From contig CAZUUP010000006.1 in NCBI GenBank assembly GCA_964623105.1, positions 1 through 30,715 of the forward strand: a stretch of 30,715 bases of DNA. Reading direction: 5' to 3'. Numbering within the stretch: position 1 is the stretch's first letter; each line of letters opens with the position of its first letter. Source of the DNA: an uncultured Akkermansia sp. Its GTDB lineage: Bacteria > Verrucomicrobiota > Verrucomicrobiia > Limisphaerales > BJHT01. The position numbers and the translations under genes are program-made. Below, piece after piece: positions 309 to 15,282 of this stretch. The notes under the pieces were generated by a model that had not been told where the DNA came from, did not search any database, and saw only the letters and a program-made list of their open reading frames with translations.

Positions 309-1160
309 TCAGCACTCATCGGTCGGGCGCACGACGCGCCAGACGGCCCACGCCACCAACCAACGCCACAGGCATCCGGCAGGAGCAGCAGGCTCGTTCA
401 GCGCACGCCCCACCAGCCTGTCAAACACGGAGCCACCCAACTGCCGAAGCGTCGCACCCAGCCCCAGCCAGGTCACCGAAAGTCCATGGCGTGCGGCCAG
501 TTGAAAGGTAATCAATGCAAAAATGTAATCGCGACGCCTGCCAGATCGTTGGTATCGAAACTTGAAGCTCACGCGCCGGCAGACACCGCCGCGTTTGACC
601 TGCTCCACGGCCCACGCGGCGTCTTCCATGGTCGGCACCGCCTCGTCGAAGCGGAGTTCTTCCCAGCGCGAACGGCGGATCATCCCCATGCTGTTGGAAT
701 AAATGGAGCCAAACTTCAGCCCTTTGGCGTGGAGTTCAGACCAGTCGATCGCGTCCGTGTAAAACCGGTCGTCGTCCCATTTGCCGCTGGCGCACACGGT
801 CCGCGGGTCGGTCATGGCGGCCGTGAGTTGTTCGATGGCGTCTGCCGATTCCAGCACGGTGTGCGAACTCAAGACCAGGATCAGTTCCGCCGGGCACCGC
901 GAGATGGCGTGGTTCAAGACCCGAGAGTGATGGTAAGGTTCGGTCCAGTTCAGGATCGTCGCCCCGACGCTGCGCAGAAGGTCCGCCGAGCCATCGGAGC
1001 TTCCGCTGTCCACGGCGACGATGAGATCCGGTTGCACCGTTTGACAACGCAAGGCCGCCAGCACGTCCGGCAGCGTGGCCGCCGAGTTTTTGAAGCGGAT
1101 GATCACGGCCAGACGCGCGCGGTGCCCGGGACGGGCCGGGATTACAGCGGGGTTGCTCAT
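309..1160 (-). CDS. Glycosyltransferase family 2 (283 aa)
   Basis: GT-A motifs VIIRFKNSAATL, VDSGSSDGS and HSRVLN. The ATG at 1160 overlaps the exosortase stop (ATGA). The N-terminal extension of the tracked 571-aa ORF is out-of-frame read-through of the exosortase gene. Confidence 0.9.
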   Translation of the reverse strand: MSNPAVIPARPGHRARLAVIIRFKNSAATLPDVLAALRCQTVQPDLIVAVDSGSSDGSADLLRSVGATILNWTEPYHHSRVLNHAISRCPAELILVLSSHTVLESADAIEQLTAAMTDPRTVCASGKWDDDRFYTDAIDWSELHAKGLKFGSIYSNSMGMIRRSRWEELRFDEAVPTMEDAAWAVEQVKRGGVCRRVSFKFRYQRSGRRRDYIFALITFQLAARHGLSVTWLGLGATLRQLGGSVFDRLVGRALNEPAAPAGCLWRWLVAWAVWRVVRPTDEC

Positions 1161-2602
1161 CGGCTCGTCTCCGTCGCGATGCGCTGCCGGGAGAAATCTC
1201 CCAAAGCCACCTGCGTTCCGAAGTGCTCCGGCGTGCAACCCAGTCGCGCGATCAACCGGTCGCTGCCCATGGAAAATGCCGCGGCGCTCATGCTTTCCAC
1301 CGGCGACGTCACGATCACATGCGCCCCGGCGGGCGACCACGGCGGCAGGGTGGCAGCGAGATACTCGCCGTAGCTCCCGAGCCAGTTCTCGCGGTGTAAA
1401 AAATATTCCCGCAGCCACCGCCGGCCATCGGTGAGCAACTCCGGATGTCCCGCCACGGCCCGCGTTTCGATCCCCCGAAAACGCAGGCACACGTTCAGCG
1501 CGTGATGTCTCCCGCCGCCCTGCGGCCCGTGCCAGATCACGTCGAGATCGGGCGCCTGACCGGGCAGGCGCAGCGCGTAACTGTTTCCACCGAGCGCGCG
1601 GCTCATCGCCACCGCCGGCGGGCTGATCCGCTCGCCGGGCAGAAGCGCAATCGCCGAACCCGCAAACGGCAGGATCAACAGCGCGCCCGCCGCGGCAAGT
1701 CCCCGCGCCGGAATGCCCGGCCCGTCGTGTGCCGGTGCCAGCGCGGCGCCGAACTCGGTAGCGTCGCCGTGCCGGATTCGCCACGCCCGGCAAAGCGACG
1801 CCAGCACGACGAGCGCGGAGCCTGCGGGTTGCATCGCCAACAGCGGGATCGTGCCGGCCAGCAACATCCATCCATCCCAGACGCGAAGGTTGCGCGCCGA
1901 CGCGAAAAACGGCGCGGACAAGAGCCACGGAAGCCAGAGCGATTCCATCGCGCTGAACCCGATTGCCACCCCGGCCCCAGCCCACGCGAGGACGCCGGCC
2001 TGACCGTCTGCCGCCACCTCCCATCGAAGTCTCATCTGCAACATCAGCAGCAGCGTCGCCAGGGCCACCACGCTCCCGCCCGGCCCGCCGACCAGCGGCG
2101 CCAGCAGCGACAGTACTGCGGATAAATAAGCCGCCTCAAACAGACGGAGCGCGCGGGGACGCCCGTCCGCCGGCATGAACCAGCCGAGGACCGGCAGCAG
2201 CCAGACGAACCCGACAAAGTTGTGAAGCTGCGGGCTTTCGACCGCGGGGAACAAAACGTGGCGGCAGGCGATCAACGTGAGAATCCTCGCAACATTCGCC
2301 GCCAGCGAGACCGGCACCGCCAGCGCCAGCCGGAGCCACAGCTGCGCCGACCACGGCTCGTTGCGCCGGCTCCACAGTGTCAGCGCCCACAGTGTCGCCA
2401 AAATGTTCAGGCCCGCACAGTCCGGCGACCACGGCACCTGGAGCGTGCCCACCTGAAGCCCGTCAACATTGTTCGCCGCGGCGAAGCCCGCCGCCTCGAG
2501 CAGCCAGACCACCAGCGGGCGGACAATGCCCGATCCCCAGTCTCCGCGGCCGGCCGCGTGCAGCAGCACAAACACCGCGCCGAGCGCGGGCGCGACGCGC
2601 AT
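1157..2602 (-). CDS. Exosortase/archaeosortase-family transpeptidase with extra TM region and C-terminal EpsI-like soluble domain (481 aa)
   Basis: Catalytic triad motifs PDCAGL (Cys), ANVARI (Asn-x-x-Arg) and QLHNFVG (His), multiple TM helices, and C-terminal RHHALNVCLRFRG resembling the EpsI H-x-x-x-x-C motif. Start placed at 2602 (TGATG coupling to the upstream stop); 2635 is an alternative. Confidence 0.82.
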   Translation of the reverse strand: MRVAPALGAVFVLLHAAGRGDWGSGIVRPLVVWLLEAAGFAAANNVDGLQVGTLQVPWSPDCAGLNILATLWALTLWSRRNEPWSAQLWLRLALAVPVSLAANVARILTLIACRHVLFPAVESPQLHNFVGFVWLLPVLGWFMPADGRPRALRLFEAAYLSAVLSLLAPLVGGPGGSVVALATLLLMLQMRLRWEVAADGQAGVLAWAGAGVAIGFSAMESLWLPWLLSAPFFASARNLRVWDGWMLLAGTIPLLAMQPAGSALVVLASLCRAWRIRHGDATEFGAALAPAHDGPGIPARGLAAAGALLILPFAGSAIALLPGERISPPAVAMSRALGGNSYALRLPGQAPDLDVIWHGPQGGGRHHALNVCLRFRGIETRAVAGHPELLTDGRRWLREYFLHRENWLGSYGEYLAATLPPWSPAGAHVIVTSPVESMSAAAFSMGSDRLIARLGCTPEHFGTQVALGDFSRQRIATETSR

Positions 2603-3660
2603 CAGCGGACTTGCGATCGAATGTGGGATACCCATTGCGCGACGTGGGGTGAGGGGTTGCGGCGTTTGAGTTCCTGCGCCCAGCGGTCCGTGGATGGCAC
2701 ATCGGCCGTCCGCGCCGCGGAGAGGAACAGAATCAGCAGGGTTTCGTCCGTGAGCGCCATGGGCGCGTGTTCCCGAAATTGGCCGAGCAGGCTCGCATAT
2801 TGTTTTTGGGAGAACGCTTTGCGCACCGCCAGTTGCGCGGTCACAGCCTGCGTCGCCGCCGCCTTCGCCGCGCCGTTTCCCGCCAAAAACCCGGCCAGCC
2901 GCGCGGTCAAGCCCGTTGCGGCACGGGTGCCCTGAGCCTGGCGCAACAGATCGGTCATTTCGTTCCGAACCGTCGCCGGCATCCGTCCCGCACGCAGCGC
3001 AGCGGCGATGACCCGCTGCGCTTCATTCGCCACGCCGCTGTTGAACTGCATGGCTTCAAACAACCGCACATCGTGCCGGGTCCACTGGGCGGGATCAGAA
3101 CCGAGGTAAGCCTCGAGCGCGGCGGCGAACTCGCCCTCATGCGCACGGACGCGGGCTTCGAGCAATGGAGGCAGGTGCCGCGCCGCGATCGCTTCGAGCA
3201 ACGCCGGCCGGTAGGGATTGGCTTCCGTGGACGCCAGTTCCTCGTGCAACCGGAACGGCGCATATTGAAACTCCGCCGGAATTTGCGCGGTCGGCAGCGC
3301 CCGGAAGATTTCCAGTGCCGCCGCAGGTTCGCCGCTCTCCACCCGCAACATCGCAAGCAGGTATCTCGCGGGCACATGCTCGGCGACCGAGGCCTCGCAT
3401 TGCAGCGCCTCGAACAATTCCGGCGTCGCCGCCGCCGCCTCGGCGGTGGGTGCGATGTCCGGCCAGTCCATCCGGGCCAGGCGCGAGGCGAGAGGTTCGC
3501 CGGTCTCGCCAGCGAGCACGTTTCGCCCTGCGAAAACTGAAGCGCGCCGCGGCGCAGGCTTCGTCGTCGTCGCGCGCCAGAAGAACGCCCCCGTTCCCAG
3601 CAGCGCCAGGATGGCGGCGAGCAGCGCGATTCGTTGGTGTCGATGCATGGTCATGATCAT
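2602..3660 (-). CDS. Hypothetical membrane-anchored alpha-helical (TPR-like) protein (352 aa)
   Basis: N-terminal hydrophobic helix RIALLAAILALLGTGAFFW, then Ala/Leu-rich helical repeats (AAALEIFRAL, FAAALEAYL). Translationally coupled at both ends. Confidence 0.75.
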   Translation of the reverse strand: MIMTMHRHQRIALLAAILALLGTGAFFWRATTTKPAPRRASVFAGRNVLAGETGEPLASRLARMDWPDIAPTAEAAAATPELFEALQCEASVAEHVPARYLLAMLRVESGEPAAALEIFRALPTAQIPAEFQYAPFRLHEELASTEANPYRPALLEAIAARHLPPLLEARVRAHEGEFAAALEAYLGSDPAQWTRHDVRLFEAMQFNSGVANEAQRVIAAALRAGRMPATVRNEMTDLLRQAQGTRAATGLTARLAGFLAGNGAAKAAATQAVTAQLAVRKAFSQKQYASLLGQFREHAPMALTDETLLILFLSAARTADVPSTDRWAQELKRRNPSPHVAQWVSHIRSQVR

Positions 3661-4490
3661 TGGCGGCCACGGCGGGCCAGGATGACGCCGAGCACGCCCA
3701 GCAGCCAGAGTGGCGGCGTGGGAGCGCCCGGAGTTGTGTCTGCCGAGTTGAACGCGATTCCCTCCGGCGACGCGGCGACGCCGAAGTTGGCGGCCTCAAG
3801 CACCGCCGCGTCCCCGGCCCCGAGGAGGGCGAAGTCCTCGAATCCGCCGGAGAAATCAAAAAAGGTTTCGTTGCCCTGCGTGCGCGTGGCGGCCGTTTCG
3901 AGCAGTTGCACGTTGACCCTGGCCGACAACAGCGTCCCCTGAAACGCCACGTCCCGGATCTGGATCACATCATCGAGCTGCCCCAGGTTGAACCCGGAGG
4001 TGCTGCCCGTCAGCGCGCTGCTGCCACCCTTGCCGAAAAGCGTGTGAAACGTCCGGGCCTCGGTGCTTCCCGACTCGCGGATCAGGGCGCTCGTGCTCGT
4101 GAAGAAATCGCGGAAATTGTAGCTCCCGGCCGTCGTGGTGACCTGCAGTTCGAGCTGCTTGATCGCCACGCCGATCGAATCGGAGGTTTCATTTCCCGAG
4201 GCGTTTTCATTCAGGTCCACTCCCAGCGACAGCGTTCCGTTCGGCCCCACATACTGCTGGAATGCGCCGGGCGAGATGTCCTTCAACACGTCGATGACTC
4301 CCGATCCCTGGTAAATCTTGTCCGTCAGCATCACCGGCACCTGCGCCCGCACCATCGGCGGCAGGACGGAAACCCCGAGCCAGAGGAACAGCAGAACCGC
4401 CCAGCCCCCGGGCGCTTTCCCGGGCGACCCAGCGCGATTCCTGCGGGCACTTCCGCGGCGCGGGATTCTTTGCAATGCGACGTTTTTCAT
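3657..4490 (-). CDS. Secreted protein with a C-terminal PEP-CTERM-like sorting signal variant (APTP); predicted exosortase substrate (277 aa)
   Basis: Signal-peptide-like WAVLLFLWLGVSVLPPMVRA-QV, an S/T/G-rich beta-type mature domain, and C-terminus TTPGAPTP-PLWLLGVLGVILA-RRGRQ (motif, TM helix, basic tail). The exact start is uncertain. Confidence 0.82.
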   Translation of the reverse strand: MKNVALQRIPRRGSARRNRAGSPGKAPGGWAVLLFLWLGVSVLPPMVRAQVPVMLTDKIYQGSGVIDVLKDISPGAFQQYVGPNGTLSLGVDLNENASGNETSDSIGVAIKQLELQVTTTAGSYNFRDFFTSTSALIRESGSTEARTFHTLFGKGGSSALTGSTSGFNLGQLDDVIQIRDVAFQGTLLSARVNVQLLETAATRTQGNETFFDFSGGFEDFALLGAGDAAVLEAANFGVAASPEGIAFNSADTTPGAPTPPLWLLGVLGVILARRGRQ

Positions 4491-4507: not shown

Positions 4508-4522
4508 GCAGGGTTCATGCCA
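4508..4522 (-). promoter_or_regulatory. Sigma54 (-24/-12) promoter of the exosortase operon
   Basis: Minus strand reads TGGCATGAACCCTGC (GG-N10-GC), 18 nt before the 4490 ATG, divergent from a bEBP gene. Confidence 0.7.
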
Positions 4523-4605
4523 CCCCGCGACCGCACCCGACCCCGGGAGTTTTCCGCGTCAATCCGGGCTTGGGGGCCGCTCCCGGTGTGCCGCACGGGT
4601 CAACC

Positions 4606-4648
4606 CTTCATTGCAATCCGCCGATGTTGCAGGGAAACTGCATTGCAA
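4606..4648. promoter_or_regulatory. Candidate enhancer (UAS): three TGCA(A/G) half-sites phased at 16 bp
   Basis: CTTCA-T-TGCAA (4606), TGCAG (4628) and CTGCA-T-TGCAA (4638). Right halves lie at 4612, 4628 and 4644, about 110-150 bp upstream of the predicted sigma54 start site. Confidence 0.5.
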
Positions 4649-4652
4649 TCGC

Positions 4653-6113
4653 ATGATCAACATCCTTCACCCAGCCGGCTTCGAGCACCTTCTCGCCCCC
4701 CGCATCAAACAACTCGGCCTGGCATTTCGCACTTTTGCAGACGGCCACGTCACCGAATTGTCCCCGGCCACCAAGGACGTGGTCTATCTGGTGCCCTTGC
4801 AATCCATGGACGCGGACTCGTGGCCGCGGCTGCGCGTGCAGTTTGCGCGGGCCAACCGGCCGTACCTCGTCTGGCTCGACACCCCCACCACCCACGACGT
4901 GGCACGGAGCATGCGTGACGGGGCTTATGATGTGCTATCGACTCACGATTCCGACACCCGCTGGAGGCAGGCCATGATGGCCGTCGCCGAAAACCAGCGG
5001 CTCTGGCTGCAGCTCTACGGCGGGCGGCCGTTGAGCGCGGAGGATGTCCTCATCGGGCGCTCGGACGCGATCCAGCGCCTGCAACAGACCATCGACCGGC
5101 TCGGGCCGACCGACGTGTGCGTCCTCATCCACGGCGAGTCCGGGGTGGGCAAGGAGCGCGTTGCAGCCGCATTGCACAAGGCGGGCAAGGACGGCCCGTT
5201 CATTGCACTGAATTGCGCGGCGATTCCCAAGGATTTGCTCGAGGCCGAACTCTTCGGCGTCGAGAAGGGCGCGTTCACCGGCGCGCTCAAGTCGCGTCCC
5301 GGCCTGGTCGAGCAGGCCAACGGCGGCACGTTGTTTCTGGATGAAGTCGGTGAAATGGAAATCGGCGTGCAGCCAAAGCTGCTCCGTTTCCTCGAGACGC
5401 GCAAAGCCCGGCGCGTGGGCGGCGACTCGGAATACCGCGTCAAGGTCCGGGTCATCTCCGCCACCAACCGCAACCTCGACCTCGAGATTGCCGAGAACCG
5501 CTTCCGCCCCGACCTCTTTTACCGGCTGGCGGAAATCACGCTCCAGGTCCCGCCGCTGCGCACGCGTCCCGAGGACATCGCCGAACTGGCCATCGTTTTC
5601 CTGCGGCGCTCGAACGAGCGGTTTGGAAAAAATTTCGAGACGCTCGACCCGGAGCTGATCCGTCGTTTCGAGCAGTATTCCTGGCCGGGCAATGTCCGCG
5701 AGTTGAAGAGCGCGATCGACCGCCTGACGCTGCTCTTCGACGGCCCGATTCTGCGCGCGCCCTGGTGGGACATGCCGGAAAGCCGCCTGCCGCGGCCCGT
5801 CCAGGCGGTGGCGACGCCAGCCCCGCCCGCCGTGCCCGCTGCACCGGTCGCGCCGGTCGCGCCGGTTGCACCGCCGCCCCTGTTCGCGCCCGAGCCGCGC
5901 GAGACGCCGGTCGTTCCCGTCGCCGCCGCGGCCCCGGTCCTCCCGGCAGCCGCCGTCGCATTCGGGACGGCCATCCCAAACAGCAAACAGAAGTTTGCCC
6001 TCGCCAAAAAACTGCTCGCGGAGAGCGGCGACAATTTCAGCTGGGTTGCGGGCCAGCTCGGCATCAACAGCTCGACGCTCTGGCGCTGGCGCAAGGCGGG
6101 CAAGCTCGACTGA
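4653..6113 (+). CDS. Sigma54-dependent transcriptional activator (bEBP, NtrC family) with degenerate N-terminal receiver (486 aa)
   Basis: Walker A GESGVGKE, GAFTGA loop, Walker B LFLDE, FRPDLFYRL, WPGNVREL, a Pro/Ala linker and a C-terminal Fis-type HTH (VAGQLGINSSTLWRW). Confidence 0.95.
   Translation: MINILHPAGFEHLLAPRIKQLGLAFRTFADGHVTELSPATKDVVYLVPLQSMDADSWPRLRVQFARANRPYLVWLDTPTTHDVARSMRDGAYDVLSTHDSDTRWRQAMMAVAENQRLWLQLYGGRPLSAEDVLIGRSDAIQRLQQTIDRLGPTDVCVLIHGESGVGKERVAAALHKAGKDGPFIALNCAAIPKDLLEAELFGVEKGAFTGALKSRPGLVEQANGGTLFLDEVGEMEIGVQPKLLRFLETRKARRVGGDSEYRVKVRVISATNRNLDLEIAENRFRPDLFYRLAEITLQVPPLRTRPEDIAELAIVFLRRSNERFGKNFETLDPELIRRFEQYSWPGNVRELKSAIDRLTLLFDGPILRAPWWDMPESRLPRPVQAVATPAPPAVPAAPVAPVAPVAPPPLFAPEPRETPVVPVAAAAPVLPAAAVAFGTAIPNSKQKFALAKKLLAESGDNFSWVAGQLGINSSTLWRWRKAGKLD
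5841..5873 (+). repeat. 9-bp tandem repeat (about 3.7 copies) encoding APV-APV-APV-AP in the bEBP linker
   Basis: gcaccggtc-gcgccggtc-gcgccggtt-gcaccg. Confidence 0.7.
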
Positions 6114-9306: not shown

Positions 9307-9381
9307 TCCGTTTCCAATCAACTCAAGCTGTGGCATAAACCTTTGCCGTCACGGTCAACCAACCTCAACCCGGATACCCCT

Positions 9382-9938
9382 ATGTATGGAATGGTGAACA
9401 AAGCAATCGAAGACATGGTTTGCGCCAATCATGGCGAAGCCGTGTGGGAACAGATCAAGGCCGAAGCCGGCGTGGACGTGGATGTCTTCATGAGCAACGA
9501 AGGCTACCCGGACGAGATCACCTACCAGCTCGTCGGCGCCGCCAGCAAAATTCTCAAGCTCCCCGCCGACGCCATCCTCGAGTCCTTCGGCGAACACTGG
9601 GTGCTGCACACCGCGCAGGAAGGCTACGGCGGATTGATGCAGGCCGCCGGCAAATCGCTGCCCGAGTTTCTCGCCAACCTGCCCAACTTCCACTCGCGCG
9701 TGGCGATGATCTTTCCCAAGCTGCAGCCGCCGCGTTTTCAATGCACCGACGTGACCGCCTCGTCGCTCCGGCTCCATTACTTCACCCACCGGCCCGCCCT
9801 GACGCCCTTCGTCGTCGGGTTGATGAAAGGCCTGGGCCGGATGTTTAAGACCCCCGTCTCGGTGCGCCTCGCCGTGCCAAAAGGAGCCGGTGCCGACCAC
9901 GACATCTTCGACGTGACGTGGACGAATGCTCCGGCCGC

Positions 9939-9942
<4 letters not shown>
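9382..9942 (+). CDS. hnoX: H-NOX (heme NO/O2-binding) protein (186 aa)
   Basis: MYGMVNKAI N-terminus, FGEHW, proximal His104 (NFH), PPRF proline and Y-x-T-x-R (Y133/T135/R137). Closely resembles the Nostoc and sGC-beta1 type H-NOX. Confidence 0.95.
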
Positions 9943-12922
<2,980 letters not shown>

Positions 12923-12926
<4 letters not shown>

Positions 12927-13309
12927 ACCGACCCAAAATCGTCCTTATCGAGGATCATCCCCTGAATCGGGAGCTCGTCATCGATTGCCTCGAATCGGTC
13001 GGCTACGATGTCCTCGCCGCCAACACCGCCGCGACCGGCATCCGGATGGTCGAACAGGAACAGCCCGCGATCGTGTTGATGGACATCTCCCTGCCGGACA
13101 TGGACGGCCTGACCGCCACCCGTCGGCTCAAGGAAAACCCCGCCACGCGCCACATCCCCGTCATCGCGGTCACCGCTCACGCCATGCGCAGCGACGCCGA
13201 ACGCATCCGCGACGCCGGCTGCGACGCCCAGCTCACCAAGCCCATCGACATCCGCGCGCTCCGCGAACTCGTGGCGCGACTCCTCCACCCCGGTCCCCCG
13301 CCACAATGA
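12923..13309 (+). CDS. Single-domain response regulator (DivK/CheY-like, 128 aa)
   Basis: LIEDH, LMDISLPDMDG, VTAHA and TKP. ATGA overlap. Confidence 0.93.
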
Positions 13310-15282
13310 AATCGCCTCCGGATTCTCCTCCCACCTCCGCCGGACGTATCTTGGTCGTCGATGACGAGCCCTTCAATCGCGACATCCTCCGCGACGCCCT
13401 CGCCGATCACGGCTACGAAGTGGTCGAGGCCGAGAATGGCGCCGAGGCCATCAAGCAGGTCGCAGCCCACGCCCCCGACGTCATCCTGCTGGACATCATG
13501 ATGCCCGTGATGGACGGCCTCAGCGCCTGTCGCCAGCTCAAGGCCGCTCCCGCCACCGCCGCCATTCCGATCGTCGTCATAACCGCATTGCACGAACGCG
13601 AACCCCGGCTCGAGGCCATCGCCGCGGGAGCGGACGATTACCTCACCAAGCCCGTGGATCTCCCGGAGGTGCTCCTGCGCGTCCGCAACGCCGTCCGCTC
13701 CCGGCGCCTCTATCTCGAACTCCAGGCCAGCTACCAGCGCCTCCAGCAACTCGAGGAACTCCGCGACAACCTCACGCACATGATCGTGCACGACATGCGC
13801 GCGCCGCTCTCCGCCATGATCGGTTTCCTCAACCTCCTCCGCACCGGCGTCGGCCCCCGGCTTTCGCCTCCGGAAAAATCCGCTCTCGACACCGTCACGT
13901 CTTCTGCCAGCCGGCTCGCCGACATGGTCACCACCATGCTCGACGTCAGCCGCCTCGAGTCGGGCGCCATGCCCCTCCACCCCGAATCGTGCGACCTGCG
14001 CGCGGTCGCCGCCGCCGGCCTCGACCCGCTGGGACCGCTGGTGGCCGACCGCCGGATCCTCGTGCTCGCCTCCGGACCTGTCACCGCCCGCTGCGATCGC
14101 GAATTGATCCGCCGCGTCATCTCCAATCTCCTCGGCAACGCCCTCAAGTTCGCACCCCCGAAAACCGACATCCGCATCATCCTCGACCATCGCGCCGACC
14201 GCGTCCGCGTCGAGGTGATCGATGCCGGCCCGGGCATCGCGCCCGAAAATCAGGAAAAGATTTTCTCGAAATTCGGCCAGGTCACCGGCCCGAAGCAGGG
14301 AATGGGCAGCGGGCTTGGCCTCACGTTTTGCAAACTCGCCGTCGAAGCGCACGGCGGCCGCATCGGGGTCAGCAGCGAACCCGGCCGGGGCGCAACCTTC
14401 TGGTTCGAACTCGACTCCGCGCCATCCACTCCAGCCCCGCCTCCCGCGAATGCCCCGCCCTCCCCTCTCGCGCCCACAGCCCCGCCCGCAGCCGACCGGC
14501 CCGCACCCGCTCCTCCGGGCCGCACACTGCGCATCCTCGCCGCCGAAGACGACGATGCGAACCGCCGGCTGACCAAAGTCCTCCTCGAAAGCCTCGGACA
14601 CCACGTCACCGCCGTCGCCGACGGGGCCCAAGCCGTCGCCGCCTGGGCACCGGGAAAATTCGACGCCCTGGTGACCGACTGCGAAATGCCCGCGATGGAC
14701 GGCTTCGAAACGACCCGGCAAATCCGCCAGCGCGAAGCCGCCCTCGGCATCCCCGCCCCGCAGCGCCTCCGCATCCTGGCCGCCACGGCCAATCCCGCTC
14801 CGGACATGCCGCAGCGTTGCCGCGCCGCGGGCATGGACGATTTTCTCGCCAAGCCGCTTACCGCCCAGGGACTGCACCACGCGCTCTCCCAGGCCCCCGG
14901 CCTGCCACCCACCACGCCACCGCGCCCCCCGTGCGACTTCGACCCGCAGCGTCCCGCCCAGCTCTGCGCGGAACTCGGCGCGGAATCGGGCCACATGATC
15001 ATCGGTGATTTCCTCCGCGACCTTCCCGCCGCCCTCGCGGAAATCCGTGCCGCCTTCGTCGCCGGACGCGGCCAGGATCTCGCGCGCCACGCCCATTCAC
15101 TTCAAGGCATCAGCCGTTCCCTCGGCCTCGATGGATTCTCAGAATGTCTGCTGGGTCTCGAACTGGCCGCCGGCCAGAGCGACCTCGCCGCAGCCGTTCC
15201 GCCCCACCTCGAAGCGCTGGCCCTCTCCGCCGAAAAATCCACCGCCGCCCTGTCCGACTGGCTCACGTCCAATCGCCCGTGA
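13306..15282 (+). CDS. Hybrid kinase REC-HisKA-HATPase-REC-HPt (658 aa)
   Basis: VVDDE/LLDIMMP, H-box HDMRAPL, NLLGNALKF, DAGPGI, GSGLGL, a second REC (AEDD/TDCEMP) and HPt AHSLQGISRSLG. Confidence 0.92.
   Translation: MKSPPDSPPTSAGRILVVDDEPFNRDILRDALADHGYEVVEAENGAEAIKQVAAHAPDVILLDIMMPVMDGLSACRQLKAAPATAAIPIVVITALHEREPRLEAIAAGADDYLTKPVDLPEVLLRVRNAVRSRRLYLELQASYQRLQQLEELRDNLTHMIVHDMRAPLSAMIGFLNLLRTGVGPRLSPPEKSALDTVTSSASRLADMVTTMLDVSRLESGAMPLHPESCDLRAVAAAGLDPLGPLVADRRILVLASGPVTARCDRELIRRVISNLLGNALKFAPPKTDIRIILDHRADRVRVEVIDAGPGIAPENQEKIFSKFGQVTGPKQGMGSGLGLTFCKLAVEAHGGRIGVSSEPGRGATFWFELDSAPSTPAPPPANAPPSPLAPTAPPAADRPAPAPPGRTLRILAAEDDDANRRLTKVLLESLGHHVTAVADGAQAVAAWAPGKFDALVTDCEMPAMDGFETTRQIRQREAALGIPAPQRLRILAATANPAPDMPQRCRAAGMDDFLAKPLTAQGLHHALSQAPGLPPTTPPRPPCDFDPQRPAQLCAELGAESGHMIIGDFLRDLPAALAEIRAAFVAGRGQDLARHAHSLQGISRSLGLDGFSECLLGLELAAGQSDLAAAVPPHLEALALSAEKSTAALSDWLTSNRP

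Follow-up and report, generated by a model that had tools for sequence, protein, structure and literature searches.

The window examined here is a stretch of 30,715 nucleotides (nt) from an uncultured Akkermansia sp. (assembly GCA_964623105.1, contig CAZUUP010000006.1, positions 1 to 30,715), and its first part carries a putative exosortase sorting operon. Four overlapping open reading frames (ORFs), all on the minus strand, occupy positions 309-4490. They encode, in this order, a cargo protein of 277 amino acids (aa; 3657..4490), an Ala/Leu-rich helical protein of 352 aa, here called the helper (2602..3660), an exosortase Z-like enzyme of 481 aa (1157..2602) and a family-2 glycosyltransferase (GT2) of 283 aa with a PF00535 domain (309..1160). 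The cargo and helper genes meet in an ATGA overlap, and a second ATGA overlap joins the exosortase gene to GT2, the start of which overlaps the exosortase stop. The helper/exosortase junction reads TGATG if the exosortase starts at 2602; an alternative upstream ATG at 2635 would give an ORF of 492 aa (1157-2635) and an overlap of 34 nt. The start at 2602 agrees with the public gene call (P0111) and with the beginning of the match to the exosortase Z (XrtZ) profile. The ORFs and their overlapping junctions confirmed an earlier sequence-only reading of the locus, which had described a translationally coupled operon of substrate, helical protein, exosortase and GT2. The order cargo-helper-exosortase recurs in 11 related loci, and in 4-5 loci GT2 follows downstream. 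Since the window begins at a contig end, additional genes may lie past GT2. Relatives were collected from loci of a genome collection (L numbers below) and by one exhaustive profile search; word-indexed searches were swamped by low-complexity candidates and returned the query alone for the helper and 15 matches for the enzyme.

The enzyme was compared with the named exosortase subfamilies. The NCBIfam model for exosortase Z, NF050190, matched it with 451.1 bits (E 3.3e-135; scanning the genome gave 450.9 bits) and aligned from its position 3 to 454 of 460, while the next-best named subfamily, XrtV, reached 47 bits and covered the catalytic region of ~110 residues alone. Exosortase Z was thus the best end-to-end match among the named subfamilies, its architecture and invariant motifs included. 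The exosortase/archaeosortase signature TIGR04178 was passed (37.9 bits, cut-off 23), as was PF09721 (37.1 bits, cut-off 25.7), but the latter aligned over profile positions 134-243 of 254 alone. As the NF050190 score falls under the NCBI naming cut-off of 475 bits, the enzyme is called XrtZ-like and not XrtZ.

The NF050190 scores of the relatives formed a series of 309 (a divergent paralogue), 451 (the window), 460, 477.5, 500, 514, 583, 620, 623, 626 and 627.5 bits. Loci containing a helper were found on both sides of the cut-off (L006, 460; L024, 477.5; L004, 500; L009, 514 bits), indicating that the cut-off does not delimit a clade. In a maximum-likelihood tree of 28 full-length sequences the window enzyme had a long branch, and the support for its neighbours was weak. 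With the two other exosortases of the genome as outgroups, which had very long branches, the XrtZ-like sequences formed one group (support 88/89, stem 3.9), and the window enzyme lay in its basal polytomy beside two enzymes scoring above the cut-off (L004, 500 bits; L024, 478 bits). No supported split between the window lineage and the named XrtZ members was seen in this outgroup-rooted tree. Gapless scores, shared invariant residues and the tree together indicate that the cut-off is not a natural boundary, and from its sequence the enzyme appears to be a divergent lineage of the XrtZ radiation.

The catalytic core of the enzyme lies at its N-terminus, with Cys62 (2417-2419), Arg106 (2285-2287) and His127 (2222-2224). 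It is followed by more transmembrane (TM) helices with the motif MESLWLPW and then by a soluble C-terminal domain of ~130 residues (~aa 325-455) with the motif GRHH..VC..(Y/F)RG. Both motifs were invariant in an alignment of 31 sequences, as were C62, N103, R106, R114 and H127, and the layout of core, TM helices and soluble domain characterises the entire XrtZ family and does not set the window copy apart. Of the EpsH profile the second half alone aligned, at the N-terminus of the enzyme, which unlike EpsH lacks the N-terminal half of the 8-TM fold; a circular permutation of this fold was considered as an origin of the later TM helices but was not adopted. No membrane topology obtained by hydropathy and positive-inside counting was judged trustworthy. 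The AlphaFold2 (AF2) model of the enzyme had a pLDDT of 86. In a Foldseek search of the AlphaFold DB (AFDB) its best whole-model match was an exosortase fusion annotated as 'EpsI domain-containing' (residues 6-448, E 3e-7), and residues ~257-466 matched stand-alone EpsI models with probabilities of 0.84-0.99 and low TM-scores (0.2-0.3). The likeness to exosortase-EpsI fusions and to stand-alone EpsI is one of fold, unaccompanied by a sequence-profile match: Pfam gave no match to EpsI/DUF3485 (PF11984) at E <= 10 for residues 315-481, and none of the EpsI models of NCBIfam (NF0456xx) matched the C-terminal part, where XrtZ was the sole NCBIfam match. No solved exosortase-like structure was found with the enzyme model, for which the best matches were unspecific and helical (best Z 6.2); against solved structures the C-terminal domain was weakly PsbP/Mog1/DcrB-like (Z 5.8).

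The cargo ends in a PGAP-CTERM-type sorting tail (3660..3737, minus strand). Its last 26 residues (252-277) read TT-PGAPTPP-LWLLGVLGVILA-RRGRQ and are followed by the stop codon; they comprise the motif P254-G-A-P-T-P-P260, a hydrophobic helix of 12 residues (L261-A272) and the basic end R273-R-G-R-Q277. The layout of motif, TM helix and basic tail that the sequence-only reading had described is therefore present. Its placing of APTP where VPEP usually stands was also borne out, as homologous tails of the type ..TPEPS.. align column for column with ..APTPP.., although the motif is better read as P-G-A-P-x-P-P. The PEP-CTERM profile TIGR02595, against which the tail was to be scored, gave no match to the cargo at E <= 1, and a match to MYXO-CTERM remained sub-threshold. 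The PGAP-CTERM model NF050189 (cut-off 25 bits) gave 22.7 bits in a whole-protein hmmscan; when the 6.26-Mb assembly was scanned in six frames, the same tail scored 27.1 bits (E 4e-5) and was the sole match above the cut-off, which was reached in 0 of 14 control genomes, so that the tail exceeds chance. The elements of the PGAP-CTERM signature, namely motif, hydrophobic helix, basic cluster at the extreme C-terminus and an XrtZ-type gene nearby, were all found, with the enzyme encoded one gene downstream. Tails of this type in relatives scored 33-45 bits with NF050189; members of the window's own cargo family in L004 and L013 reached 33 bits, above the cut-off.

Conservation of the tail was followed in the cargo family, which consists of 109 homologous clusters of 38-60% identity, all 'hypothetical' and without Pfam domains. 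P257 and P259 were conserved in at least 90% of these homologues, the pattern [GA][AT]PxPP with TM helix and basic end was present in 83/109, and NF050189 matched 64/109; a logo was built from 80 anchored tails. PEP-like tails (..[GA][AT]PEP[SAE]..) were observed in 11/109 homologues, e.g. P0022, P0034, P0047, P0053 and P0060, indicating that one passenger domain occurs with two kinds of sorting signal.

The one-to-one relation of enzyme and tail was also seen at the level of the genome, the assembly of which is 99.7% complete (6.26 Mb). A single gene matched the XrtZ profile, and it lies one gene away from the sole PGAP tail, in the same operon; a regex scan of all ORF C-termini in the genome revealed no second real PGAP-type tail. 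The notion of a dedicated exosortase with a single adjacent cognate target was thereby upheld. Two further exosortases are encoded in the same genome, together with PEP-CTERM proteins, at least four in number (four were found by TIGR02595); a private motif that keeps the cargo off the general PEP-CTERM machinery fits these counts. On another contig (G000 contig C646; L027:186-2697, minus strand) a gene encodes a protein of 226 aa of the 'choice-of-anchor E' type (NF033208, 128 bits) that ends in a PEP-CTERM tail; directly downstream of it lies the gene for one of these two exosortases, which has 563 aa and a C-terminal part weakly like EpsI. This exosortase reached the cut-off of no named Xrt subfamily, and the two genes look like a second dedicated pair of the genome.

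Besides its tail, the cargo comprises a signal peptide (~aa 1-49), a beta-sandwich passenger domain (~aa 50-235) and a short S/T/P linker. No passenger-domain model in Pfam or NCBIfam was matched by the cargo or by any of its 109 homologues, and this includes the Npun_F0296 cargo family NF050191, sought at E <= 1 in the cargo. When the cargo family was aligned by hhalign with five NF050191 cargos, the tails alone aligned (93.5% probability, 32 columns), indicating that the tail can be transferred as a signal and belongs to no common passenger domain. Two unrelated passengers carry one tail wherever an XrtZ-type enzyme adjoins, and this is good reason to regard the tail as the recognition signal. 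AF2 modelled the cargo with confidence (mean pLDDT 86.5) and mostly as beta structure, with a beta-sandwich followed by a C-terminal helix. The model gave generic jelly-roll, carbohydrate-binding-module (CBM) and ConA-like matches against the PDB with Foldseek (E >= 0.017, TM ~0.2), a best Z of 5.7 with VIA-align, again jelly-roll/CBM-like, and other small PEP-CTERM proteins in AFDB (E ~1e-3). Because these matches are generic, no function, carbohydrate binding included, was assigned from the fold. A loop of the pattern D.NENASGNE..S (residues 92-105) was at least 90% conserved in the 109 homologues. Two N-x-S/T sequons lie in this loop, and a role in metal binding or in glycosylation is conceivable. 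One cargo homologue, P0086 (L030:6001-6975), stands alone between the housekeeping genes ribF and pdxJ, with no exosortase within 6 kb. In Candidatus Synoicihabitans palmerolidicus (L014:2990-4855) cargo and helper are each split over two frames upstream of an intact XrtZ-type gene, which could reflect gene decay or assembly errors.

The helper has a single N-terminal membrane anchor, an all-helical domain resembling tetratricopeptide repeats (TPR) and a conserved C-terminal motif W..EL.RR.P......W. Its likeness to TPR proteins derives from language-model features and from a match to TPR_4 at 11.7 bits, which is sub-threshold (cut-off 27). Homologues of ~350 aa were located between cargo and enzyme in L004, L006, L008-L012, L014, L016, L017, L019 and L024, and likewise in L029 and one further contig. 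They were absent from the canonical two-gene loci (L007, the first cassette of L018, L021-L023) and from L013, L015, L018b and L025. An exhaustive profile search yielded 139 representative clusters, nearly all of 320-365 aa, and neither Pfam nor NCBIfam has a curated model for the family. Among 11 aligned helper copies, read by eye, seven have a Cys in a lipobox-like position after the N-terminal helix; in the window, L004, L016 and L024 the helper is simply membrane-anchored and lacks this Cys. No PrsT-type model appeared among the NCBIfam matches of the helper at E <= 1, and neither the PrsT profile nor a lipobox was found in it. Co-folding of cargo (50-277) with helper (40-352) gave a score of 0.00, which is evidence neither way.

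The GT2 protein matched PF00535 with 49 bits, above the gathering cut-off of 23.3, and no specific NCBIfam equivalog at its cut-off. In L005, L015, L023 and the second cassette of L018 the XrtZ-type gene is immediately followed by an orthologue (53-62% identity), and in L029 a family-4 glycosyltransferase (GT4) gene lies between the XrtZ-type gene and GT2. GT2 is absent beside many other XrtZ-type genes. Where both occur together, GT2 is better conserved (53-62% identity) than the enzyme (35-46%), and it stands beside XrtZ-type genes of three separate tree clades (L015/L025, L023 and the window). Its presence in different enzyme branches and its better conservation indicate a functional link without proving it.

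Taken together, these results make it most probable that the operon is a dedicated single-cargo sorting cassette of the exosortase Z/PGAP-CTERM type, represented here by a divergent copy just below the NCBI naming cut-offs. The reading is carried by the full-length homology to XrtZ, the Cys/Arg/His signature, the conserved tripartite tail, the one-to-one pairing of enzyme and cargo and the coupling of the genes in an operon. It also disposes of the suggestion that enzyme and tail are an unnamed exosortase/CTERM pair: the enzyme matches NF050190 (E 3e-135) and the tail NF050189, and a strong match to a defined Xrt/CTERM family had been named beforehand as the finding that would speak against an unnamed pair. 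Several points weigh against the reading. The enzyme (451 of 475 bits) and, in the whole-protein scan, the tail (22.7 of 25 bits) stay under their curated cut-offs; the terminal branch of the enzyme is long (~1.0) and its placement is only in a polytomy; and the Npun_F0296 domain (NF050191), a companion of high-scoring XrtZ genes, is missing from the cargo. The promoter proposed below leaves a leader of ~7 nt, so that either the promoter or the start codon of the cargo is uncertain. The literature search found no experimental study of any exosortase Z, and in the mechanism outlined next the cleavage and acceptor steps are inferred and the parts of glycosylation and of the helper are speculative.

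Related sortase-like enzymes are transpeptidases, and for archaeosortase A (ArtA) lipid attachment of substrates has been shown. By analogy with such enzymes, the cargo would be exported by Sec, and its C-terminal helix would hold it in the inner membrane with RRGRQ on the cytoplasmic side. The XrtZ-like enzyme would then recognise P-G-A-P-x-P-P at the outer face of this membrane, and its Cys would attack the motif and remove the C-terminal helix. At the cell surface, in the polysaccharide matrix, an acceptor would then receive the beta-sandwich domain, or the domain would be set free. More speculatively, the co-translated GT2 might glycosylate the cargo or build its acceptor as a glycan or a lipid-linked molecule, the TPR-like helper with its membrane anchor might escort the cargo, as PrsT accompanies PEP-CTERM proteins, and the neighbouring sigma-54 activator would probably switch the operon on together with the surrounding polysaccharide genes.

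The transfer step could be missing altogether. In that case XrtZ would be a plain processing protease that releases the cargo unattached into the matrix, and GT2 would serve the neighbouring polysaccharide pathway only; we consider this possible but doubtful. To our knowledge no acceptor is known for any exosortase, GT2 is missing beside many XrtZ-type genes, and other polysaccharide genes abound in the locus. Furthermore, PEP-CTERM proteins of Nostoc are found in the exoproteome and are lowered there by deletion of cyanoexosortase B (PMC12188702). Release without attachment is at odds, however, with the overlap of the GT2 start with the exosortase stop and with the GT2 orthologues, which are more similar to one another than the accompanying enzymes are and recur in three tree clades of XrtZ-type genes. 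The established transpeptidase activity of related sortase-like enzymes also argues for transfer. A more far-reaching proposal is that the helper-containing XrtZ branch constitutes a distinct, glycosylation-coupled route, in which GT2 would make the acceptor or glycosylate the cargo and the helper would hand the beta-sandwich cargo with its D.NENASGNE loop to the enzyme. This we regard as unlikely; if true, an acceptor pathway would be defined for an exosortase for the first time.

A little less likely still is a separate, unnamed exosortase subfamily with its own signal, sister to XrtZ and defined by the helper and the different cargo. Enzyme and tail scores under or at the cut-off, a cargo family that differs from the curated Npun_F0296 cargo, the long terminal branch of the window enzyme and the absence of the helper from all high-scoring XrtZ loci (L007, the first cassette of L018, L021-L023) would agree with such a subfamily. 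It is contradicted by the helper-containing loci themselves, which straddle the cut-off, by tails of the same cargo family that exceed the PGAP-CTERM cut-off, and by the tree, in which no supported split from the named members was obtained; architecture and invariant motifs are moreover common to both. That the tail is a mere membrane anchor, or is handled by one of the other two exosortases, with the adjacency to XrtZ devoid of functional meaning, is very improbable: the PEP-like tails and the one homologue standing alone indicate that cargo and enzyme can be uncoupled, but the PEP-CTERM profile does not match the tail, its motif prolines are at least 90% conserved, two unrelated passenger families carry the same tail beside an XrtZ-type enzyme, and the genes are translationally coupled.

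The assignment to the exosortase Z/PGAP-CTERM type was further examined by comparison with known systems. The NCBIfam XrtZ system (NF050190/NF050189/NF050191) has the same full-length enzyme architecture with MESLWLPW helices and the GRHH..VC domain, the same tail of P-G-A-P-x-P-P, TM helix and basic end, and a single cargo gene upstream of the enzyme. The high-scoring loci of this system (L007, the first cassette of L018, L021, L022 and L023) consist of two genes, the cargo bearing NF050191 and PGAP-CTERM. The window differs in its scores just below the cut-offs (451/475; 22.7/25), in its other, unmodelled beta-sandwich cargo, in the additional TPR-like helper between cargo and enzyme and in the GT2 coupled downstream. 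XrtZ, exosortase Z and PGAP-CTERM were not mentioned in the literature searched, which returned unrelated string matches alone; as far as this search shows, the family exists as database models only.

In Aquincola and Zoogloea, a PEP-CTERM gene dependent on RpoN, pepA, is followed by the TPR gene prsT in an arrangement that has been studied experimentally; in Aquincola, prsT is needed for floc formation (PMC9850573). The window shares with this XrtA/PEP-CTERM pair the order of a small secreted cargo gene and a TPR gene, the location in an exopolysaccharide locus, a sigma-54 promoter, here a candidate, with an activator, and a cargo presumed to link polysaccharide with the cell. In contrast to the XrtA/PrsK-PrsR-PrsT system, the motif is PGAPxPP and not VPEP, and there is a single cargo per genome, not many. 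The likeness of the helper to PrsT is positional and functional only, as the helper has ~350 aa, no match to the PrsT model and no lipobox. Archaeosortase A with PGF-CTERM and the cyanoexosortase B (CrtB) of Nostoc belong to the same TIGR04178 superfamily and follow the same logic of a tripartite tail, but they differ in the number of cargos, which is many per genome, and in the motifs that they recognise. In Nostoc punctiforme, deletion of CrtB lowers PEP-CTERM proteins in the exoproteome (PMC12188702), and by analogy this is the kind of phenotype that would be expected for the window system.

The value of the locus lies mainly in annotation. The curated cut-offs of XrtZ and PGAP-CTERM slice a continuous family, and copies such as this one are consequently labelled merely 'exosortase/archaeosortase family protein' and 'hypothetical protein'; with enzyme and tail scores at the cut-offs, automatic annotation would leave both unnamed. 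Uncurated are the beta-sandwich family of the cargo and the ~350-aa helper family, the system of enzyme and tail being curated already. As a compact system, a cassette of one enzyme and one cargo to which a glycosyltransferase is coupled could serve to ask what exosortases attach their substrates to; the locus adds no new principle past the curated family and the PEP-CTERM literature.

XrtZ-type genes are rare: they were detected in 5 of 401 genomes sampled across Verrucomicrobiota, the window genome included, and among the genomes searched the system was confined to this phylum; the named relatives were metagenome-assembled genomes (MAGs) of Opitutaceae, Akkermansiaceae and Verrucomicrobiaceae. 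A Verrucomicrobiaceae MAG (L018:2969-8870) carries two XrtZ-type cassettes in tandem. The first comprises a canonical Npun_F0296 cargo and an XrtZ of 627 bits; the second comprises a cargo of the window type, an exosortase ORF with a C-terminal end like that of the low-scoring paralogues L015/L025, and the conserved GT2.

Divergently from the operon, a sigma-54-dependent activator (bacterial enhancer-binding protein, bEBP) is encoded at 4653..6113 on the plus strand (PF00158, 210 bits). Among the NCBIfam models closest to it is that of the PEP-CTERM-box response regulator, TIGR02915, with 281 bits, below the cut-off of 502.6. A pattern search located a candidate sigma-54-type -24/-12 element, TGGCAT-N6-CTGC (4508..4522, minus strand), 17 nt upstream of the cargo ATG. 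The pattern occurs three times in the window against 1.4 expected, which is not above chance, so that its position is the sole argument for this element. The genome contains rpoN, and a divergent sigma-54 activator beside the trio of cargo, helper and exosortase was also found on an unrelated contig. In the gap between activator and cargo (4560-4652) the palindrome ATTGCAAT occurs twice, with 32 bp from start to start and 24 bp between the copies, and these palindromes are candidate activator sites.

The neighbouring genes encode a Wzy_C-type membrane protein, GT4 enzymes, an H-NOX phosphorelay, a priming phosphoglycosyl transferase (Bac_transf), an acetyltransferase and an FkbM methyltransferase; the operon is part of a polysaccharide locus. 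Within this locus, at 9307-15282, two hybrid kinase genes follow an H-NOX gene, the first with HNOBA, PAS and GAF domains and the second with an Hpt domain.

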